From sequence record OM386656.1: a stretch of DNA of 64,000 bases; one strand, written 5' to 3'. Source of the stretch: Escherichia phage vB_EcoM_ESCO25. The translations under genes and the position numbers were made by a program. The number at the start of each line of letters is the position of its first letter. The stretch's first letter is position 1. This document shows positions 14,166-25,464 of the stretch, piece after piece. Below the pieces are notes generated by a model that worked only from the letters and a program-made list of their open reading frames with translations, was not told the origin of the DNA and ran no database searches.

Positions 14166-16841
14166 ATGTTTCCAATTCCAATATTTACTATTATGACCAG
14201 CACTGGTGTCGTTCCTCTGCCAGCAGGTATTGTTAAAAAAGTAATCACTTTAGATTACCCAGATAATGCTGGTAATTCTAATAGCAGTTTAGCAATTTTG
14301 CTTAATGATGGTAGATTGTTTACTCAAGGCGCAAACCTTTTTGGTGAGATTGCAGATGGAACTCGTAGTGCACGATTCAATAATTTCCACTTAGCTTCTA
14401 CTGTAGTAGCGGATGTGTTTACCGCAGATCGTTGTTTTGTTATTAAAACTAACAGTGGAGGATGGCAATATTCAGGATTGACAGCAGGATTGGTAGGATC
14501 TATAGCAGCAGGTGGTACGGACGCATGTGTAACTACTTGGACCAGCTTTCCATCTGTAATAACAGGGACTATCTCTTTAGCTAATCTTAAAGAGGTTAAG
14601 GGAGGATATAACAATACTCTCTGGTTAATGAATAGTGGTGTTCTTTATGGATCAGGTCAAAACACAGTAGGTAGTTTAGGTGCAAGTACTACTAACGAAG
14701 TTTCTACTCCTCGTCAGATAACAAGTGCAGCAGTTGCTTTTGATGCAGGTTACAACCAATGTTCTTATGTCAACAATGTGGGAACCTTGCGTGTTTGTGG
14801 AGCCAGTAAAGGTTTAGCAGGTAATAATAACACAACAACAGCTTTTGTCAATGCCAAGATATCCGCTACTGAAACAGTGTATGTCAAAGATTACATCAAT
14901 ACAGTTTCCCAGACAATAGTTGTAGGAGATACCTCCGGTGGCACGGGTACAGTAAACTACTTATATGTTAGATCTAATACAGAAACAACCTACACTAAAC
15001 TGGATACCTTTGCAGCAGGTTTCTCAATATGGAAGTTTCCACCAAGCCGCCACTCTTTTTTCGTTGGGATCAATAATTCCTTGTGGGCTATTGGTAAGAA
15101 CTACACTGCAAACTTAGGTTTGGGGTATGATTCTGCGAGCGGAGATCCACTCCAAGTGGGAAAACCAGTTAAACCTGAAGGAGTGGGTTCTTGGGATATA
15201 AACAAGCTCACAAGCGTTCATACGCTGAATATGGATGTTACTAACCAATTAGGTTATCAAGGAACCTTTTTCGTTTATAATGGAGATATGTATTATTCCG
15301 GTATTTGGAAAGATGGGAAAGCCTCGTATCTGTTCAATAGTGGTCTAAACTATAATAAATTCACACCAATAGCAAGCTCCGTGATTACGGGCGATATTCT
15401 GGCAACTGGCTTAACTACAGATTCTTTAGGAGTTTGTATTGTAGGTGGAACTAAACAGTTGACACATTCTGTTAGCCCAGAAGGAGGTAAACTTTTCAAT
15501 ATTAAATACACTTCTTCTGCCCCTGCAAACATGACAATATCATCTACTGGTTTAATGACTTTCCATGCAGAAGGTGGTTTTGATGCAGGTATGACAGCCT
15601 TAAACGCTGAAGGAACAACTTTATCAGATACCTCTGGAGGATATGCTTCAACATTGAGCGTTTACACCCCTAGCTTATCTGCGATGGATGTAGGAACAAC
15701 ACAAACAATGGTAGCAGAAATAACGCCAACAGGAGCAGCAAGCTTACCTGGTATGGTTGTTGAGTATTTCTCTAATGACCCTACGGTAGCAACAGTTGAC
15801 CCCGTTACAGGCGTTATTACAGCGGTCGCTGATGGGGATTGTCGTATCGGTTGTAGAGCAACTTATCAAGGTGTGGTAACTGCCGAAGATAGTTCTTATC
15901 TCGCAGTGAATGCTGTGGTGATTGTGATGGACTATGATTTGACGCAAGAAACTATTCCGGCGGATGTAAAGGTCAACAGGAGTAACCGTTATGCCAGGGC
16001 TTCTGGAGATATCCTTGTACCTACAGAGAGTTCTGCTCCCGTAGCACCTTTAGAATATGTTGGTACAACTCCACAAGGTAGACGTGTTGTAGCAGCCAAC
16101 CGTACACATATCTTTATCAACAATAACTTGACAACAGCTTCCCCGTGGTTGAAGACGAACTTGACAGTCACAGCATCAACAATCAACTCTCCGGTTGGAA
16201 CTACGGCTAACACTTACAAGTTAACACCTTCTACAACTTCAGGACAACATATTTTATCAGCAGTGAATACAGCTTCTGATATTACAGCAGGTAAGCACTG
16301 GGCGGCATCCGTATTCTTGAAGCCAGATGGGATCACTAAAGTGAAACTCAAATTGACTTCAGGAGATGAGATTAACGAAGGGACTTATGATCTTGTAGCT
16401 GGAACATTTACAGGTGCAGATGCAAACATAATCGATATGGGGAATGGTTGGTATCGTGTAATTCTACACAAAGTGACAGTTGCCAAACAAGCATCTATAA
16501 CCTATGAGATTATAGCTTTGAATGCAAGTGGATCAGACACTTTCGCAGGAGATGGTACGGCAGGTCTTATTGCTTGGGTTCCACAGCTTGAGATGGGTGA
16601 TATGACAAATCCAGTTTGGGCGGGGACACCATTTGTTTGTTCTTATGCACGAGACACTACCAGTGCTGTTACCTTCACTATTCCTAAGAATGGACATACT
16701 GGCGTGGACATTTACCACACTGATGGTACTGTGCAACGAGAGGTCTTCACTGGTACAGCTACAACTTGGATGTTGACGTTCACCGCCGCAAGTGCGGATT
16801 GGGGATCGAAGTTCATTACAGGTTTGAAATATTACGACTAA
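14166..16841 (+). CDS. tail fibre protein with bacterial Ig-like (Big_2-type) domain
   Basis: 891-aa ORF after terminator and SD GGAGGG; segment ITPTGAASLPGMVVEYFSNDPTVATVDPVTGVITAVADGDCRI resembles Big_2 domain. Confidence 0.6.
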   Translation: MFPIPIFTIMTSTGVVPLPAGIVKKVITLDYPDNAGNSNSSLAILLNDGRLFTQGANLFGEIADGTRSARFNNFHLASTVVADVFTADRCFVIKTNSGGWQYSGLTAGLVGSIAAGGTDACVTTWTSFPSVITGTISLANLKEVKGGYNNTLWLMNSGVLYGSGQNTVGSLGASTTNEVSTPRQITSAAVAFDAGYNQCSYVNNVGTLRVCGASKGLAGNNNTTTAFVNAKISATETVYVKDYINTVSQTIVVGDTSGGTGTVNYLYVRSNTETTYTKLDTFAAGFSIWKFPPSRHSFFVGINNSLWAIGKNYTANLGLGYDSASGDPLQVGKPVKPEGVGSWDINKLTSVHTLNMDVTNQLGYQGTFFVYNGDMYYSGIWKDGKASYLFNSGLNYNKFTPIASSVITGDILATGLTTDSLGVCIVGGTKQLTHSVSPEGGKLFNIKYTSSAPANMTISSTGLMTFHAEGGFDAGMTALNAEGTTLSDTSGGYASTLSVYTPSLSAMDVGTTQTMVAEITPTGAASLPGMVVEYFSNDPTVATVDPVTGVITAVADGDCRIGCRATYQGVVTAEDSSYLAVNAVVIVMDYDLTQETIPADVKVNRSNRYARASGDILVPTESSAPVAPLEYVGTTPQGRRVVAANRTHIFINNNLTTASPWLKTNLTVTASTINSPVGTTANTYKLTPSTTSGQHILSAVNTASDITAGKHWAASVFLKPDGITKVKLKLTSGDEINEGTYDLVAGTFTGADANIIDMGNGWYRVILHKVTVAKQASITYEIIALNASGSDTFAGDGTAGLIAWVPQLEMGDMTNPVWAGTPFVCSYARDTTSAVTFTIPKNGHTGVDIYHTDGTVQREVFTGTATTWMLTFTAASADWGSKFITGLKYYD

Positions 16842-16842
16842 T

Positions 16843-16878
16843 AAAAAAGGGAACCCGTAAAGGTTCCCTTTTCTTTTA
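16843..16878. terminator. bidirectional terminator between convergent tail and replication blocks
   Basis: A6 GGGAACC-CGTAAA-GGTTCCC then TTTTCTTTT; between + gene ending 16841 and - gene ending 16906. Confidence 0.75.
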
Positions 16879-16905: not shown

Positions 16906-17793
16906 TCAGAATGGAATATCATCGTCGAAGTCCATTGGAGGTTCTTCTTGATTACTTGGAGTTGGTTCTGGTTGTGGTTCAGGCTTTTTAACTTCTTTCT
17001 TCTCTTCTTTCTTAGGTTGTTCTGCGGAACCACGAATGGCAGCAGCAACTTTATCAGACAAAGCTAGAACTTTACGAGCAGAGTCAATCAGATCTTCTAC
17101 AGATACAGTCTTAATGGTATGGTCTTTACAAGCATTGAGAATAGCGTGACCAACAGATGCCCCAAGATCATAATCATTAATATCAACGCCACGAGATTCA
17201 GCAATTTCAGATTTCAGCGTGACAGTTGCAGATTGAACAACCCCAGCGATATCGAAAGCATCGCCTTTAACACCATTACGAATCAGTTCCAGTGCACCAT
17301 TTACTGCGTGACCAGTTTCCAGACCTACAGTATCACGTTTTTTATAGGACTGCTTAGGGGCAGCATCGTTGGAACCTTTATTGCCAGAAGATTTGTTAGA
17401 CTTCTGAACACCATCGGTAGACAATACTGTAATACGAGATTTTTTAGTATTGTAGTAAGTTTTACCGCCTTTATTATCAACGCGATCAATATCAATACTT
17501 ACTTCTACACCTTTTTCAATAGTGATCCAATTATCACCTTCTTTGACTTGCAGGTTTTCATAACCTTCTTTCAGTTCAATGTCACCAAGAGAAATCCAAA
17601 CACCTTTCTCATCTGGTTTAGCACCTTTCTCTTTCAGAACAAGAGAGGCTCGGTGAGTTGAAACAATCGTTTTTCCTTCCCAATGAAAAGTTTTAGGTTC
17701 AGCGAATTTATCCAGTTTGACGTAGTCTACGATACCAGTTGCATAAGTTACGGTTTTGCCTTTACGATCAGTTTCAGTATTAATTACGGACAT
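16906..17793 (-). CDS. ssb: single-stranded DNA-binding protein with host-SSB-like acidic C-terminal tail
   Basis: 295-aa ORF ending EEPPMDFDDDIPF, near-identical to E. coli SSB tail tip; body not canonical OB-fold by eye. Confidence 0.65.
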   Translation of the reverse strand: MSVINTETDRKGKTVTYATGIVDYVKLDKFAEPKTFHWEGKTIVSTHRASLVLKEKGAKPDEKGVWISLGDIELKEGYENLQVKEGDNWITIEKGVEVSIDIDRVDNKGGKTYYNTKKSRITVLSTDGVQKSNKSSGNKGSNDAAPKQSYKKRDTVGLETGHAVNGALELIRNGVKGDAFDIAGVVQSATVTLKSEIAESRGVDINDYDLGASVGHAILNACKDHTIKTVSVEDLIDSARKVLALSDKVAAAIRGSAEQPKKEEKKEVKKPEPQPEPTPSNQEEPPMDFDDDIPF

Positions 17794-17809
17794 TATTATC
17801 TCCTCTACA

Positions 17810-18202
17810 TTACATTAATTTTGCACAGAAAGAGCGGAGTCTTTCCATATCATCTTGCTCTAACAGGTATTTACCTTTACCTATTCCAACTCCAATTTCA
17901 CCATTAGGAAAATGAACTATTTGCACTGGGAAACCTCCGAGTTTAATTGTGGCAGCTTTGCCTTCTTCGTCTATAACGTTTCGGATTGTATCTTGCAGTG
18001 AAATGAATTCTTTGTTTGTAACAGTGGTTTCAATTATTTCAGATGTTTCGACACGAGCAGTTAGCTTCTTGTTTCCACCTTGAATAACCAAAATTTGAAA
18101 ATAAAAAGAGTTGTCAAGACCTACAACATTTTTCTCAACTAGTGTCAAACTGGTATAGTTTCCATAAACAGTTTCAACAGCTATCTTAGAACGTTCAGTC
18201 AT
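17810..18202 (-). CDS. hypothetical protein
   Basis: 130-aa ORF in replication gene block. Confidence 0.5.
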   Translation of the reverse strand: MTERSKIAVETVYGNYTSLTLVEKNVVGLDNSFYFQILVIQGGNKKLTARVETSEIIETTVTNKEFISLQDTIRNVIDEEGKAATIKLGGFPVQIVHFPNGEIGVGIGKGKYLLEQDDMERLRSFCAKLM

Positions 18203-18247
18203 TGAATGCTATCCTATCATAAAATGTTTAATATTGTCAAGCTTTAA

Positions 18248-18841
18248 TTACCAAGGAATATCATCTTCTTCCAATCTGGTATCTACTTGAGGTGGACGTG
18301 GAACCTTAACCTCTTTCACAAAACGAAGATATGGGAAACGTGTAGCAATTTTAATAACATGTTTGGCATCTTCTCTAACATCTTTGTGCAAGAAGCAGAT
18401 CCCTGTTTCCAAGGTTGTTTCAAAATCTTTAGAATAATAACAGTCCTTCCCATCAAATGCAGCCTGGCAGATGGACAGATCGAACTCATTTAGAAAGGTT
18501 GTCATTACGCTTGGTTCCATAATCATAAGGTTGCAAAGCTGACCATCACGTTCAAACTCAAAAACGTGTTTAAGACCAGTAACACCTTCATAATTGTCAG
18601 AAGCCTCTTTGTTTCCTAGTTTACGAATATTGGTTCCCATTAAAGCAGATGCAATTAATCCTTGTATTTGTTCTTCAGTCCGATGTGCAGGAAGGGATGT
18701 ATAGAAATCCAGATCACGTCCAGCAATATCAAGAATACGCCAATCACGAACAGCACCGCCAGCCAAGACAGAATTAGGATCAGCGATCTTTAATACGGTA
18801 AGAATTTCTTTGGCAATATTGATTTGTTTTGATTTAGTCAT
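18248..18841 (-). CDS. hypothetical protein with SSB-tail-like C-terminus (EEDDIPW)
   Basis: 197-aa ORF; C-terminal LEEDDIPW resembles SSB tail motif. Confidence 0.5.
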   Translation of the reverse strand: MTKSKQINIAKEILTVLKIADPNSVLAGGAVRDWRILDIAGRDLDFYTSLPAHRTEEQIQGLIASALMGTNIRKLGNKEASDNYEGVTGLKHVFEFERDGQLCNLMIMEPSVMTTFLNEFDLSICQAAFDGKDCYYSKDFETTLETGICFLHKDVREDAKHVIKIATRFPYLRFVKEVKVPRPPQVDTRLEEDDIPW

Positions 18842-19469: not shown

Positions 19470-22067
19470 TTAGTGACATGTGGCCCAGGAATTACCCACA
19501 TCATATCCGGCAGTAAGCTGAACGTTAAGATTGTAAAATTCTCCAGCCTTAGTAACAGCTAAAGCAGCAAGTTCACCTGCCCGACTATAGGCTGTAAACC
19601 ATCCACCTTTAGGAGATTCATGAATGTTAGCCCAAATTTGCCCTGTCTCTTTTTCCTTATTATGCTTCCATTCTTCGACTTTAGCAAGACATTCTTTATC
19701 AATTTTCTTTTGTTCTTCAGGATCGTCTACTTTCTTCCAACCTAATGATTCAGGTGAAAACCATTTAAATTCTACAAGGTTACGAGAAACTTCAAGCTGG
19801 GCTTCATCGTGATATGCAATCATTTGTTGCACGAAGTCTTTATTCTTCCAGTCATCTTTAAAGAAGTCAACACTTAGCCCTTCTTCTTCGATCATGTCGT
19901 CATAAATAACCATTGCACGTTTAGCACAGATAACCCCACCACTTTGGAACAGAGAGTTAAGAATCGCGTGAGCAGAACGAGTAGGAACCTTACGACCGTC
20001 AATACCCAAAACATACTGTTTACCAGTCTTAACCCAGAAATCGTTTAAACGTTCTTTAAGACGCGCCAGTGGGAATGCAGCTTCCCAGAAAGCATCGAAC
20101 ACCAGTTGCCCTGTGTATTTATCGCTACCAATTGTTTTAGCAACCTTGTCTGCTTGTGCACCATAAGTGATCCCGTATTTAACAGATTTCGCCGGACTAC
20201 GTTCAAATTTACGCCCAATAGTATCTGTAATACGTTTTGCCATCATGGTATGAACATCGTTAGGTTTCTCTAACAACAGAGCGTTACAATATTCGTGTGG
20301 CTCCGGCTCGTACCGCCAACAGTAGTGTGATTCAATTTTTGCTTCCAAAGAGTCGAAGTCGTAGCCGATCTGGAAGTATTTAGGAACTTCTACACCAAAC
20401 AAGTTACGCATCTCCCATCCAAACAAAGATGTGACACGAGGAATATTAGCTACAGATCTATGCTTCATACGAGAGGTTGCAGCATCACATGTAGCGGCTG
20501 GTGTAGGAATACGCCCATCCGCCCTTACTGCGGCTAAGAAACCTTTATCATATTCTTGATCTTCCTCATCTTCTTCCCAATCAGCACCGCCACCTAAAAT
20601 AGAGTTCCTACGGTGTTTATACGTTAAGTATTCTACAATCTGTGTAGCATAAGGAAATTTCTCACCCAAAGCTTGCAGGTTAGGACAAATCTCTTTTTCC
20701 TGACCTTTGGTAAAACATGGGTTAGTCAATACTTTAAGACCGCGACCTTTACCTTTTGCTATACGCTCTTGAATCTTCCTTTCCAAGGTTTCCGGTGTGC
20801 ACTCCAGATGATCACAACGATCCTGACAAAAATTAGAAGATAGAGTTTGCTCAACGTAAGCTCGAATACCTTTCTGAAGTTCTTCCTCGCTCTTTTTAAT
20901 CTTGGTGCCAGATTTAAGAGTTAAGTCTTTATCTTTATATTCAGACGGTACCCAACCTAATCCTACAAGCCAGTTTTTAATATGGGTTGTATCGTTCAAT
21001 GTTGCAGGGATGTTAGGATCACATAGAGGTTCATCTGCTGCAACTGGCAGTTTCCACTCTTTCCCCAACATAACTAACCACCAATCGCCATCCCTCTCTT
21101 CCAAATGACCATCATGTTTCTTAGCAAAATTGATCATATGGTTAGTTGGCTCTAAGTTCTTTTTAATTTGCAACTTAGGTGGAATAAAAGCCTTAAGATA
21201 GCCTTTTGTTGCTGGTTTAGGTGGCAAAATAGGCTCAACGAGTAAACGAAGACGCTCCATTTCTGCATCCAAAAAAGCAAGGTTCTCTTCTGCTTGCTTC
21301 ATGTTAAAAGCAAACCCACGGTGTTCCTGGCGTGTGATAATGTCTGCTACACGTTGTTCAAGTTCAAATGGACCTTCCCATTTATCATAATCACCCCATT
21401 CTTCCATGAGGTAATTATATACACTTGTGTTGGCTTTGTTATCATAGATACAGTAATAAAGCATATCCGCAGCAAAAGTCTTAAATCGATCTTCTTCTGG
21501 AATCTCTTTACGGAAATCTATTTTTACATCCCCGCCTGCCTTTCGAGAAAGTGCTGCCAAGCTATGTCCTGATTTGCCCTCAATCTTTCGATCTGGGTTT
21601 AACACTTTACTCAAAATTAAGGAGTCAATAAGTTTTACCTTGCTTTTACCCCACGTGTTATATTTAACACTGTAATCTAATCCATAAAACAGTTTTGTAG
21701 CCAACCAGTCATAGTTGATACCGTTGTGTGCCACAGCCATTTCAACCAAATATTCAGGCTTGTCTTTAAAATAACCTTCATGATTAATAAAATCTGGGAA
21801 ATCTTTTAGTTGAAAATGTGTGTAATCTTGCGCCACATATTCTTTAAGAACATATGTATATTTATCATCTGACTCTTCATAAGGACGACCATCAAAAATG
21901 TATTTAGGGCCATCGTGGAAAGCTACTATTTCTCCTGTTTCATGGTTCTCTAAGACAATACAGTGCATTTGAAATGTGTCTTTGAGACGATAAGGACTAG
22001 CTAAATAATCAATAGTATCATTATTCAACAATCCATTTGCTTCAATATCCCATGTAAACTTACTCAC
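19470..22067 (-). CDS. DNA polymerase, family A (T7 gp5-like) with 3'-5' exonuclease domain
   Basis: 865-aa ORF; N-terminal WDIEANGL exo motif; DGRKVPTRSAHAILNSLFQSGG and C-terminal ...NSWATCH parallel T7 DNAP (DGRKVHVRSPHAALNTLLQSAG, ...NWAICH). Confidence 0.9.
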   Translation of the reverse strand: MSKFTWDIEANGLLNNDTIDYLASPYRLKDTFQMHCIVLENHETGEIVAFHDGPKYIFDGRPYEESDDKYTYVLKEYVAQDYTHFQLKDFPDFINHEGYFKDKPEYLVEMAVAHNGINYDWLATKLFYGLDYSVKYNTWGKSKVKLIDSLILSKVLNPDRKIEGKSGHSLAALSRKAGGDVKIDFRKEIPEEDRFKTFAADMLYYCIYDNKANTSVYNYLMEEWGDYDKWEGPFELEQRVADIITRQEHRGFAFNMKQAEENLAFLDAEMERLRLLVEPILPPKPATKGYLKAFIPPKLQIKKNLEPTNHMINFAKKHDGHLEERDGDWWLVMLGKEWKLPVAADEPLCDPNIPATLNDTTHIKNWLVGLGWVPSEYKDKDLTLKSGTKIKKSEEELQKGIRAYVEQTLSSNFCQDRCDHLECTPETLERKIQERIAKGKGRGLKVLTNPCFTKGQEKEICPNLQALGEKFPYATQIVEYLTYKHRRNSILGGGADWEEDEEDQEYDKGFLAAVRADGRIPTPAATCDAATSRMKHRSVANIPRVTSLFGWEMRNLFGVEVPKYFQIGYDFDSLEAKIESHYCWRYEPEPHEYCNALLLEKPNDVHTMMAKRITDTIGRKFERSPAKSVKYGITYGAQADKVAKTIGSDKYTGQLVFDAFWEAAFPLARLKERLNDFWVKTGKQYVLGIDGRKVPTRSAHAILNSLFQSGGVICAKRAMVIYDDMIEEEGLSVDFFKDDWKNKDFVQQMIAYHDEAQLEVSRNLVEFKWFSPESLGWKKVDDPEEQKKIDKECLAKVEEWKHNKEKETGQIWANIHESPKGGWFTAYSRAGELAALAVTKAGEFYNLNVQLTAGYDVGNSWATCH

Positions 22068-23374: not shown

Positions 23375-23396
23375 TAATAAAAGGGCCGAAGCCCTT
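23375..23396 (-). terminator. rho-independent terminator after primase-helicase
   Basis: On - strand AAGGGC-UUCG-GCCCUU then UUUUAUU. Confidence 0.65.
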
Positions 23397-25173
23397 AGTA
23401 GTTGCTATCCGTAGGTAAGTTAGCAGGGTTGTTAAAATACTGCTCTTTGTCGTGAAGAGTTGCAGTTCTAATGTCATAGTAAAACTGCCCTGCTGGACCA
23501 GTCTCCGAGAACTCACGGTTTTTTAGGATAAAGCAATGAGTTGTATTACGTTCTACAGGATCTTCAGCAGCCTTATCTCGTTCCAAAGCCAAGGTAATAC
23601 CAGCACCTTTAGCCAAGAAACTACTACCCATTGCATCGTCCTCTGTTAAGTGCTCATTGCCACCATTAGCTGACTTCTTAACGTGTGAGATGACGATAAT
23701 AGTTATAGCATACTCTTTCATGATTCGCTTCAACCATGTTGCTAACTCTTCCTGGGCTTGAACATCCATACCAGAAAGCAAATCAGAATAAGGGTCGATA
23801 ACAAGAATTGTTACTCCAAAATAGATGATCATCTCCAAAACTTTTTCTTTGATAGACTCCACATCTGCTCCACGATCATCACACACGTAAAAACGTGGTG
23901 ATCCATCTTCTCTTTCGTAAAAATCTAGGATTTTTTCTTTATTCTCTTCCAAGATTTGAAATTTCTCTTCCGGTGTTTTCCTGTGTAGAGGAATGTGTAG
24001 GAAAGAGGATAACAGGTTACGAGAATACTTTTTATAAGTCGCTTCCAAGGACAGAATACCTAGGGTATGTTCTGGGTGTGCAACAATAATATGTTTGGTG
24101 ATCTCGTTCACCATCAAAGTTTTACCGATACTGGTCTTTGCCAGGATGACTGTAATCTCTTCCTCTACTAAACCACCACCCAACATGTTTGCAGCAACAC
24201 GCATAAAAGGAGGCAAGGTAATCATCTTGGATTCCAAGCATTCCAATGCAGCTTCATACAAGACATTAGAAGCATAAACACCTGCTGGGGTGTATAGACG
24301 AGCACTCCAAAAAGCTTTTACGAAATCTTTTGCACGGCCTTCTTCCAGATACTGATTGGCATCCTTAAGATCCATCTGCATACGGTAGACTTTGTTACGA
24401 GGCAGCACCTTAACAATATTTTCAAATGCCTCGTTACCTGCTTTGTCGTTATCCATGCAAACAATAATCTTCTTAAATTTTTCAAAGAAAGGATATTGTG
24501 CCTGAACTTGTTTATACATACTGGTTTCACCAGTTGTGCCACTTACTACGGCTGGAAGCTCATATTTACTGTCCAAGTTTTCAGATAGCATTTGATAAGC
24601 TGCCAGAGCATCGTGTTCACCACCTGTAATTACAACAGTATGAGAACGATCTGCAAAACGAATTTGTCCAAAAAGATCTACATCTTTACCTACTTGACCA
24701 ATAGGTTTACTGAAATCTTTAGGATGAATACGACGCTTAAAACCAACCAATTCTTTACCGATGGTAGTTGGATATAAACAACTTTCTACTACCATCTGAT
24801 CCCCTTCCTGACGGTATTCATAACGAACACCATAGAAAGATGAAACTTTTTCTTTAATGCCTCGATAACCACGTGGGTTGGTTGATGTTTCTTGAACAAT
24901 TTTACGATGAATCTGTTTATTAAATTCCGAACCCACAATCTCCTCCTCTTCTTCTAAAACTTCACCATTTTCTCGTAACCATTCTACGCTAGGAATAGTG
25001 TATTCACACGCAAAGCACTTAGCACCTTTATGCTCTCCATTAGAATCTAATCCATAAACCATCAGGTTATTACGAGAGCGATCCTTGCCATTTTTCATGC
25101 AGCGCGGACAACCTGTATGTCCTTCCTTGCTAAGATCAACATCAAATCCATATTTAGTTATAATGTGCGACAC
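23395..25173 (-). CDS. primase-helicase (T7 gp4-like: zinc ribbon, TOPRIM primase, DnaB-like helicase)
   Basis: 592-aa ORF; N-terminal CPRC...CFAC zinc ribbon; TOPRIM-like IIVCMDNDKAGNEAF; Walker A AKTSIGKT. Confidence 0.85.
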   Translation of the reverse strand: MSHIITKYGFDVDLSKEGHTGCPRCMKNGKDRSRNNLMVYGLDSNGEHKGAKCFACEYTIPSVEWLRENGEVLEEEEEIVGSEFNKQIHRKIVQETSTNPRGYRGIKEKVSSFYGVRYEYRQEGDQMVVESCLYPTTIGKELVGFKRRIHPKDFSKPIGQVGKDVDLFGQIRFADRSHTVVITGGEHDALAAYQMLSENLDSKYELPAVVSGTTGETSMYKQVQAQYPFFEKFKKIIVCMDNDKAGNEAFENIVKVLPRNKVYRMQMDLKDANQYLEEGRAKDFVKAFWSARLYTPAGVYASNVLYEAALECLESKMITLPPFMRVAANMLGGGLVEEEITVILAKTSIGKTLMVNEITKHIIVAHPEHTLGILSLEATYKKYSRNLLSSFLHIPLHRKTPEEKFQILEENKEKILDFYEREDGSPRFYVCDDRGADVESIKEKVLEMIIYFGVTILVIDPYSDLLSGMDVQAQEELATWLKRIMKEYAITIIVISHVKKSANGGNEHLTEDDAMGSSFLAKGAGITLALERDKAAEDPVERNTTHCFILKNREFSETGPAGQFYYDIRTATLHDKEQYFNNPANLPTDSNY

Positions 25174-25185
25174 TTTGTTCTCCTG

Positions 25186-25464
25186 TTAAAATGGTTCGTT
25201 AGTCTCCATCATATATTCTGCTTCTAGTTCTTCCATGTGCTTTCTAAATTGGAAAGCAATTTCTGCTACAGTTACATTTAAATCTTTTTCAAAAACTTCT
25301 GTAGATCCTTCATAAAAACGAATACCGTCAATTAAAAGCCCTCCGTGGTAATCCCAATCGCTTTCACGAGAAAGTGGATTAGGTTCTTCATAATAGTAAT
25401 CCACCTCCACGACCAAGGCTTTCCCGTTACGAGTGGTGTATTCAAAATCAAAAGTGTTAATCAT
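25186..25464 (-). CDS. hypothetical protein
   Basis: 92-aa ORF between primase-helicase and glycosyltransferase genes. Confidence 0.5.
   Translation of the reverse strand: MINTFDFEYTTRNGKALVVEVDYYYEEPNPLSRESDWDYHGGLLIDGIRFYEGSTEVFEKDLNVTVAEIAFQFRKHMEELEAEYMMETNEPF

Follow-up and report, generated by a model that had tools for sequence, protein, structure and literature searches.

An SSB-like protein with the C-terminal tip of E. coli SSB, and a nucleotidyltransferase with a similar tip, in a phAPEC8-like phage

In the window, the 64,000 nt of Escherichia phage vB_EcoM_ESCO25 (OM386656.1) analysed here, a 295 aa protein (ORF1) joins a body unlike canonical SSB to a host-type C-terminal tip, and a second protein of the same region (ORF2) ends in a similar tip. 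We suggest ORF1 to be the phage's own non-canonical SSB hub, with both tips docking into the SSB-tail pockets of host proteins, of the phage replisome or of the two, and we put the probability of this reading at roughly 0.6. The ORF1 tip is real and under selection, an uncommon form of a principle already known; phage and plasmid SSBs usually end in a host-type tip.

Genomic setting of the two genes

The window belongs to a phAPEC8-like E. coli myovirus (Phapecoctavirus). The proteobacterial host suggested by the original prediction is borne out, as E. coli Phapecoctavirus genomes match the window at 98% identity. ORF1 (16906..17793) and ORF2 (18248..18841) are both present on the minus strand, and plus-strand translations of these coordinates are full of stops; the prediction had the coordinates right and left the strand unmentioned.

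ORF1 is the final gene of a minus-strand block that contains two candidate docking partners, a family-A DNA polymerase (19470..22067, minus strand; Pfam DNA_pol_A and phrog_17) and a primase-helicase with Toprim and DnaB_C domains in a T7 gp4-like architecture (23395..25173, minus strand). The phi92 orthologue of the polymerase is annotated as similar to T7-like polymerases. Between the nucleotidyltransferase and SSB-like genes lies a conserved ORF of 130 aa (17810..18202, minus strand; phrog_16560, no function assigned), which is syntenic in phi92 (gp157) and in Citrobacter phage Tr1, and the order polymerase, nucleotidyltransferase, 130 aa ORF, SSB-like gene is common to both these phages. 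ORF1, ORF2 and the 130 aa ORF matched no defence system in PADLOC.

A GC-rich hairpin with T and A runs at its flanks (16845..16872), likely a bidirectional terminator, separates two convergent genes, a tail-fibre-region gene ending at 16841 on the plus strand and ORF1 ending at 16906 on the minus strand. Upstream of the 130 aa ORF and ORF1 there is a sigma-70-like promoter match, TTGACA-18-TAGGAT with a TG (18211..18240, minus strand); it should be noted that this is a consensus match only, the regional count of such matches being no higher than in shuffled sequence. Putative ribosome-binding sites were seen for ORF1 (AGAGGAG, 7 nt 5' of the ATG) and for ORF2 (GTGGAG, 5' of the ATG). The best DNA matches differ in length by about 735 bp, and this difference, considered as an insertion at the ORF1 stop codon, proved to lie in the DNA polymerase gene.

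The body of ORF1 and its tip

ORF1 has no Pfam domain and is a member of phrog_4477 (E=2.7e-97, 327 bits against the profile), a family with function unassigned and about 320 clusters at 50% identity. GenBank records mostly label the protein 'hypothetical protein', and some label it 'SSB'. The AlphaFold2 model is confident (mean pLDDT 82.8) and predicts, all on the minus strand, an N-terminal OB-fold beta domain as the presumed ssDNA-binding module (residues 1-130, 17404..17793), a disordered basic linker with a pI of about 10 (residues 131-152, 17338..17403; pLDDT 44), a four-helix bundle with two repeated G-H-A-x-(L)-N motifs (residues 153-253, 17035..17337), a disordered K/E/P-rich linker (residues 254-283, 16945..17034; pLDDT 45-70) and the tip (residues 284-295, 16909..16944). 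By alignment, Vequintavirinae homologues carry an additional beta domain of about 90 aa at the 131-152 linker, as does the FV3 homologue.

Structure prediction of the N-terminal part had been proposed together with the original prediction, and it gives a five-stranded beta-barrel with the topology of the nucleic-acid-binding OB-fold superfamily. The structural matches of this domain include the ssDNA binders MCM10-ssDNA, RPA14/32, Rim1 and one bacterial SSB. Two observations on the body of ORF1 speak against reading it as a hub: its OB domain, with a pI of 6.7, is not basic, and its four-helix bundle has no assigned role.

At the sequence level the body is indeed unlike canonical SSB, as had been judged by eye. 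ORF1 gave no match to the Pfam SSB model (PF00436) at E<=0.1, the NCBIfam SSB model matches residues 254-295 only (22.8 bits against a cutoff of 260), and a PDB profile search finds SSBs through the tail only. The proposed alignments to host SSB and T7 gp2.5 were run with hhalign. The former is confined to the last 16 columns, while the latter reached a probability of 0.15%, with no sequence or profile similarity, which rules out ORF1 as a gp2.5 homologue. No canonical SSB was found elsewhere by tblastn with E. coli SSB against phAPEC8 1-90 kb plus the window, which together stand in for a whole genome, nor in the RefSeq annotation, a search defined by the canonical OB domain, so that a gp32-like or otherwise unrecognisable SSB falls outside it.

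The C-terminus of ORF1 reads ...SNQEEPPMDFDDDIPF, and its final residues, EPPMDFDDDIPF, equal residues 167-178 of E. coli SSB, that is its last 12 residues, at 12/12 positions (PDB chains 1eqq and 7f2n; ...NEPPMDFDDDIPF). The predicted near-exact copy of the host tail is thereby confirmed. Tips ending in acidic-x-P-F were seen in 202 of the 258 sampled family representatives (78%) and -PW in 6/258, and the variants found are IPF, LPF, VPF, CPF and PW. No other segment of the family is as conserved as the tip, where P294 and F295 do not vary; the mean top-residue frequency per column is 0.83-0.86 there, falls to 0.53-0.55 over the folded domains and is lowest, at 0.30, in the linkers, residues 254-283 included. 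The consensus EPPxDFDDDIPF is kept even in members with only about 31-35% overall identity. In a check of host-tip co-variation the clades with divergent tips turned out to be metagenomic, the nearest isolates being enterobacterial phages at 30-47% identity.

The window has 258 six-frame ORFs of 50 aa or more, of which only ORF1 and ORF2 combine acidic residues with an [ILVM]-P-[FWY] end. In phAPEC8 1-90 kb taken together with the window (901 six-frame ORFs of 40 aa or more) another [ILVMF]-P-aromatic tip was not detected, and a looser acidic-aromatic pattern gave only NrdB, which ends in DDEELDF. Both tips are kept in relatives, and the adjoining linkers vary. A chance origin of the tips is ruled out by these scans of ORF ends together with the conservation in the family.

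The original prediction had named an ordinary host SSB acquired whole as the outcome that would speak against it, and ORF1 is not such a protein. The OB domains are dissimilar, and at the DNA level the last 39 nt alone resemble E. coli-borne ssb, namely plasmid ssb genes at about 92%; chromosomal ssb gave nothing above 78% across about 50 nt. That host ssb was captured as a whole gene is hence ruled out and, judged from the sequence, ORF1 is no recent host capture. That an unrelated body is joined to the exact host tip across the family shows the tip to be the selected, portable element.

In the mechanism we propose, ORF1, for which we infer ssDNA binding, would coat the ssDNA made by the T7-like replication proteins (the family-A polymerase and the gp4-like primase-helicase) and would display its free tip, ...EPPMDFDDDIPF-COOH, on a flexible tether. 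Sharing the sequence of E. coli SSB-Ct, the tip is expected to fit the docking sites used by the host SSB-interacting proteins, in which the terminal aromatic enters a hydrophobic pocket, the alpha-carboxylate meets a basic lip and the Asp residues lie along a basic ridge. Probably it also recruits phage-encoded replication or recombination proteins, for which T7 and HK620 are precedents, and by this analogy it may equally serve phage-encoded partners. It is probable that the two tips use the same docking sites on proteins. We infer the partners bound by the tips and likewise the substrate of ORF2; that the phage mimics or hijacks the SSB interactome of its host, as originally suggested, seems plausible.

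ORF2 and the capped tips

The second protein predicted to end in LEEDDIPW is ORF2. There are hence two tip-bearing proteins as predicted, but ORF2 is not a second SSB, as its signature and fold are those of a nucleotidyltransferase of the pol-beta superfamily (197 aa). Together with the predicted nucleotidyltransferase fold, the h-G-[GS]-x(9-13)-D-h-[DE]-h signature is found at residues 28-45 (GGAVRDWRILDIAGRDLD; 18707..18760, minus strand), and its G-G...D-x-D residues are invariant across 12 homologues. Pfam PolyA_pol (PF01743) scores 13.9 bits, with the gathering threshold at 23, which places ORF2 outside the class II CCA/poly(A) family, and the phi92 gp158 and Tr1 relatives are also sub-threshold at 19-22 bits. 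Signature and model taken together, ORF2 is a small nucleotidyltransferase of the pol-beta type that is probably active.

Its tip, EEDDIPW (residues 191-197; 18251..18271, minus strand), has all the sequence features of the SSB-Ct type, being acidic with an I/L/V-P, a C-terminal aromatic, a free carboxylate and a flexible tether; the terminal Trp in place of Phe also occurs in the 6/258 tips of the SSB-like family mentioned above. The predicted model is moderately confident (pLDDT 65), with residues 179-184 and 190-197 below 50. In relatives of ORF2 at 59-98% identity DDIPW is kept, with one variant DDSFPW, and the preceding linker varies. The phi92 homologue (37% identity) has no tip, therefore the tip is not intrinsic to the function of the enzyme, and this counts against our reading. 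We propose that the Phapecoctavirus lineage gained EEDDIPW-COOH on ORF2 as an SSB-Ct-like address tag behind a short variable linker, and that this tag would deliver the enzyme to the pockets of the ORF1 tip or compete for them. A literature search for DDIPW returned nothing relevant.

In many phage and plasmid SSBs the IPF is capped by a conserved extension of about 15 residues (AP[IV]GLQY...), the capped form of the tip being ...DDDIPFAPIGLQYGRNFLHCF. Within the family of ORF1, the IPF is internal and followed by about 15 residues in the laboratory phage phi92, which is viable, and in 21/258 representatives, a further point against the proposed hub. By the alpha-carboxylate rule (PMC10164576) such a cap should block binding to the canonical pocket, and a free tip should therefore be dispensable or used differently in the capped phages. 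The extension is present without an HNH gene in phi92, HK75 and V039C, which partly rules out that it is a by-product of an overlapping HNH gene. Its differences are of the synonymous type at the nucleotide level, indicating selection on the peptide. Searching the literature for the extension peptide and for phAPEC8 SSB gave nothing relevant.

One may speculate further that the SSB-Ct tip is a portable tag on non-SSB enzymes, with ORF2 targeted to SSB-tail pockets and the cap acting as a second module, though we regard this as rather improbable. ORF2 would then nucleotidylylate a protein or a nucleic-acid 3' end at these sites, on host genome-maintenance proteins or on the phage replisome, as an attack on, or a modification of, the SSB interactome, and the cap would be a docking or masking module of a kind not yet described, by which the tip is switched from one partner to another.

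Alternative explanations and known systems

The tips might serve the phage replisome alone, in the manner of T7, with the identity to the host as coincidental convergence and the host proteins not engaged. An acidic-aromatic tail would then be a generally good ligand, and in T7 the polymerase of the phage is the docking site of both the gp2.5 and the gp4 tail. The phage has a T7-like family-A polymerase and a Toprim-DnaB primase-helicase, and holds two tip-bearing proteins in one gene block as T7 does. The primase-helicase of a related phage, Klebsiella phage VLCpiM5b, bears a tip of its own (a DDDTPF-type tail), indicating that the tag moves between replication proteins. Recruitment of a phage protein by a phage SSB tip is documented (PMC5928155). 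In T7, Kong and Richardson (1998) reportedly found that gp2.5 with the E. coli SSB tail supports growth of the phage, so that such tails are interchangeable. However, a phage-specific partner does not need 12/12 host identity, yet EPPxDFDDDIPF persists through the divergence of the family. Moreover, the tips of the family vary like the known SSB tips of host clades (IPF, LPF, VPF), which is no more than suggestive. We find service to the replisome alone unlikely.

It seems still less probable that ORF1, ORF2 or both are mainly decoys, whose tips titrate host SSB-interacting enzymes (ExoI, RecJ, RecQ, UDG) so that phage DNA is protected or host DNA metabolism shut down, with ssDNA coating as a secondary matter. 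Such a role would agree with the host identity of the ORF1 tip, with a tip on ORF2 where signs of an SSB are absent, and with an OB domain that is not basic, but a pure decoy needs neither the conserved OB domain and tether that ORF1 keeps, nor its setting among replication genes, nor its place as sole SSB candidate. The affinities of single SSB-Ct tips are also micromolar only (PMC10164576), thus titration would need very high expression. Finally, ORF1 could be some other OB-containing factor, such as a mediator, an annealing protein or a transcription cofactor, that joins SSB complexes through its tip. While the unassigned function of phrog_4477 and the additional helical domain leave room for such a factor, no other SSB was detected in the genome, and an OB domain with a disordered spacer and an acidic tip is the defining layout of an SSB hub (PMC10164576). 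We regard this explanation as very improbable.

Reading ORF1 as a non-canonical SSB hub gives a functional annotation to a conserved 'hypothetical' gene of rV5, phi92 and phAPEC8 phages (Vequintavirinae and Stephanstirmvirinae). Bacterial genome maintenance is organised around SSB tips as its hub, and work is under way to exploit them as an antibacterial target. Here a family of about 320 clusters, uncharacterised in the literature we found, joins an unrelated OB-plus-helical body to the host tip. If the tip-tagged nucleotidyltransferase does bind the pockets, enzymes could be addressed to SSB-partner pockets. Phage SSBs are known to trigger the defence systems retron-Eco8, Hna, AbpAB and DARNA (10.64898/2026.02.22.705581), and a structurally foreign SSB with a host tip could test what such SSB-sensing systems detect.

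The G-G-x-V-R-D ... D-x-D head motif and the pol-beta fold link ORF2 to poly(A) polymerases and class II CCA-adding enzymes as well as to minimal nucleotidyltransferases, among them the MenT toxins. At only 197 aa it lacks the neck, body and tail domains with which the class II enzymes bind tRNA. We know of no C-terminal SSB-Ct-like tip in the CCA-adding, poly(A) or MenT families.

With E. coli SSB and the PF00436 SSBs of phages and plasmids ORF1 shares the arrangement of OB domain, disordered linker and acidic I-P-F tip, whereas its OB domain has no detectable sequence homology to theirs. In these SSBs conservation is highest in the tip, with a variable linker ahead of it (PMC10164576), and in ORF1 residues 254-283 are likewise disordered and variable while residues 284-295 are identical to E. 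coli SSB. The SSB of HK620, which has been described as distantly homologous to bacterial SSB, uses its tip to bring in the phage protein Sak4, and the last six residues NDYPPF are needed for this (PMC5928155). The principle, a tip serving a phage partner on SSB-coated ssDNA, would be the same here, but the HK620 tip has diverged, whereas in ORF1 the body is unrelated and the tip copies that of the host exactly. In T7, as cited in 10.64898/2026.02.22.705581, the gp2.5 tail binds the T7 polymerase and helicase. The acidic tail with a terminal aromatic, a gp2.5-like feature, is present and conserved in ORF1, on what would again be a phage-specific SSB next to a family-A polymerase and a Toprim-DnaB primase-helicase, and in both phages more than one protein of the replication block bears such a tail. 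The ORF1 tip is, however, the exact host motif, which the T7 tails are not, and the second tagged protein is a nucleotidyltransferase here and the helicase in T7.

Two SSB-type C-termini in the phage genome

The window shares 98% identity with Phapecoctavirus genomes (phAPEC8-like E. coli myoviruses, Stephanstirmvirinae); on phAPEC8 it runs from about 81.2 kb to the end of the genome and then covers the first 475 bp. Both predicted ORFs are real and lie on the minus strand; ORF1 (16906..17793(-), 295 aa) ends in ...SNQEEPPMDFDDDIPF, and ORF2 (18248..18841(-), 197 aa) carries the predicted DDIPW tip, ending ...LEEDDIPW. The final 12 residues of ORF1, EPPMDFDDDIPF, match the C-terminal end of E. 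coli SSB (PDB chains 1eqq and 7f2n) at every position, which confirms the proposed copy of the host tail.

Of the 258 ORFs of at least 50 aa in the six reading frames of the window, ORF1 and ORF2 alone have an acidic ending with [ILVM]-P-aromatic, and a scan of the whole-genome equivalent revealed no further tip of this kind. A looser acidic-aromatic pattern added, genome-wide, only the phAPEC8 ribonucleotide-reductase small subunit NrdB (L006:41244-42329(-)), whose ending, ...DDEELDF, is the known acidic-aromatic tail type binding the large subunit. The two tips are rare in the phage genome. A 92-aa ORF directly upstream of the primase-helicase gene (25186-25464(-), no Pfam domain) ends ...MMETNEPF, a weak match to the acidic-P-F type that may represent one more tip in degenerate form.

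ORF1 as candidate SSB

ORF1 was assigned to PHROG 4477 (no assigned function, E=2.7e-97), and no Pfam domain was found in it. Matches to SSB profiles are confined to the last ~45 residues. The alignments called for by the original prediction were made as profile comparisons; with E. coli SSB the final 16 columns alone align (probability 96.7%), and no similarity to T7 gp2.5 was detected (probability 0.15%). An AlphaFold2 model from 61 homologues, with a confident mean pLDDT of 82.8, consists of an all-beta domain (residues 1-130), a disordered basic linker (133-149), a four-helix bundle (156-253) and a disordered tail (~254-295). The supposition that the body is no canonical OB-fold SSB holds by profile, yet the fold predicted for the body is nonetheless that of an OB domain.

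ORF1 is the final gene of a minus-strand block and is followed by a bidirectional terminator-like hairpin (16845-16872). Also encoded in the block are a DNA polymerase of family A (19470-22067(-)) and a primase-helicase of the Toprim-DnaB type (23395-25173(-)), the gp5/gp4-type replication machinery of T7. In phi92 and Citrobacter phage Tr1 the genes likewise follow one another as polymerase, nucleotidyltransferase, 130-aa ORF and SSB-like gene. The 130-aa ORF (17810-18202(-); phrog_16560, no assigned function) always lies between the nucleotidyltransferase and SSB-like genes (phAPEC8, phi92, Tr1), and a sigma-70-like promoter match is located upstream of it (18211-18240).

With E. coli SSB as tblastn query the ORF1 tail was the only match in the window, the remaining 90 kb of phAPEC8 gave none, and the RefSeq annotation lists no SSB; hence, as far as these searches reach, the phage has no candidate SSB other than ORF1. 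In GenBank it is already labelled 'SSB' by some submitters and hypothetical by most.

Two further observations concern the locus. The polymerase gene is ~735 bp longer in several close relatives (vB_EcoM_10C3_SA_NWU, Ro121c4YLVW, phi92 and Logan contig L003), giving 1104-1189 aa vs 865 aa in the window (the gene at 19470-22067(-) against L002:3971-7303 and L004:2836-6150 in relatives), and the excess may be an intein or other in-frame mobile insertion. Records named for Campylobacter, Acinetobacter and Pseudomonas (e.g. A110a, vB_AbaM_ABPW7, PsgM04F; database matches H12, H31, H75, H88 and the 'Campylobacter phage' records) have a locus highly similar to that of the E. coli phages: vB_AbaM_ABPW7 shows 98% DNA identity to the window, A110a scores at phi92 level against ORF1 and ORF2, and the PsgM04F nucleotidyltransferase is 60% identical to ORF2. 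The host labels of such records look doubtful.

Conservation of the tips and an extension beyond IPF

Word-indexed and exhaustive HMMER searches placed 321 clusters (50% identity, E<=0.001) in the ORF1 family, whose isolates are exclusively large enterobacterial myoviruses (Stephanstirmvirinae, Vequintavirinae and relatives). The C-terminus was acidic-x-P-F in 202 of 258 representatives and acidic-x-P-W in 6; IPF was followed by a ~15-residue extension in 21 and by one extra residue in 6, 8 had other acidic-aromatic endings, and 15 were fragments or of no listed type. The tip is the best-conserved segment of the family alignment, with a mean top-residue frequency per column of 0.83-0.86 against 0.53-0.55 for the two folded domains and ~0.30 for the linkers, and P294 and F295 are invariant. 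This excess over domains and linkers indicates strong purifying selection on the ORF1 tip. The family alignments A1/A2 (columns ~215-300) and the phage FV3 homologue (L010:1501-2727) show an extra ~90-aa beta domain that Vequintavirinae homologues carry at the basic linker. A distant homologue, P0258 (519 aa), has 8 separate profile-matching stretches, the best across the helical-bundle region.

ORF1 DNA resembles E. coli-borne ssb genes only in its last 39 nt (~92%, to plasmid ssb genes), so there is no sign of recent host DNA capture as its origin.

ORF2 matches phrog_10174 'nucleotidyltransferase' (E=6.5e-63) and has an invariant GGAVRD...DLD motif; the Pfam PolyA_pol head domain matches below threshold only. 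DDIPW (one variant DDSFPW) is retained in relatives at 59-98% identity, the preceding 10-15 residues being variable, and the Tr1 homologue (36% identity) ends KPKDIPW. The tip is lacking in phi92 gp158 (37%) and in two homologues that are more distant still, and judging from this distribution it is a lineage-specific, selected addition. Tips in -PW also occur inside the ORF1 family (e.g. DDDIPW, DDDLPW), which supports Trp as an accepted substitute for the terminal Phe.

The conserved extension, e.g. APIGLQYGRNFLHCF, has the consensus [AS]-P-[IVL]-G-L-[QP]-Y-x-x-x-x-x-x-[ACV]-[FILM] and leaves IPF no longer C-terminal. It is found in phi92 gp156 (L004:699-1646(-)), Tr1 (L005:4064-5035), Salmonella phage NINP13076 and a carrier at L009:1552-1986; ORF1 of the window lacks it. 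Several unrelated proteins also have it after DDDIPF: two canonical SSBs, from lambdoid phage HK75 (L011:766-1272) and Vibrio phage V039C (L013:577-1125), the primase-helicase of Klebsiella phage VLCpiM5b (L012:503-2566) and a Salmonella phage-plasmid SSB (L015:436-972). The extension was matched by 231 phage records and by 99 plasmids, of which 69 are predicted conjugative; many of the plasmid hits are weak.

The extension is often overlapped by a gene of HNH or EndoVII type. In some relatives a 164-aa HNH-motif endonuclease gene (...HAHHCDYDKPLDVLWLCPLHHEAWH...; L003:3905-4399 in the Logan contig, a Phapecoctavirus, and L005:5007-5501 in Tr1) is inserted directly after the extended SSB-like gene, overlapping its 3' end; the window has only the terminator at this position. 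A homing site may lie in the conserved DNA that encodes the tip. Since no such overlap exists in phi92, HK75 and V039C, and nucleotide differences in the extension are largely synonymous, the peptide itself appears to be under selection. Our search found no literature on the extension, which deserves study on its own account.

Proposed docking of the tips

SSB-Ct is read by a hydrophobic pocket taking the terminal Phe, a basic lip the alpha-carboxylate and a basic ridge the Asp residues, and deletion of the terminal Phe abolishes binding (PMC10164576). By the alpha-carboxylate rule the extension should block canonical docking, and the capped IPF of relatives counts against an absolute need for a free tip.

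From these docking rules and phage precedents, we propose that ORF1 would be the replicative ssDNA-coating hub of the phage, its tethered, host-identical tip docking on host proteins at their SSB-Ct pockets and, probably, at those of phage replication proteins as well, while the ORF2 tip would bring the nucleotidyltransferase to the same pockets or compete for them. The 12-residue identity persists in family members whose bodies are ~31-35% identical to ORF1, which argues that the tip targets host pockets, among others; the case for phage proteins as additional targets comes from the T7-like gene set and from the tip on the primase-helicase of the related Klebsiella phage. The tip is real, host-identical and selected, the body is non-canonical, and the original interpretation is partly supported, hijacking of the host SSB interactome being what we infer.

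The precedents are the HK620 SSB tip, which recruits the phage protein Sak4 (PMC5928155), and the tail of T7 gp2.5, whose binding partners are T7 polymerase and helicase (cited in 10.64898/2026.02.22.705581). Set beside these, a non-canonical SSB-type hub together with a tip-tagged enzyme is new as a variant of a principle already known.
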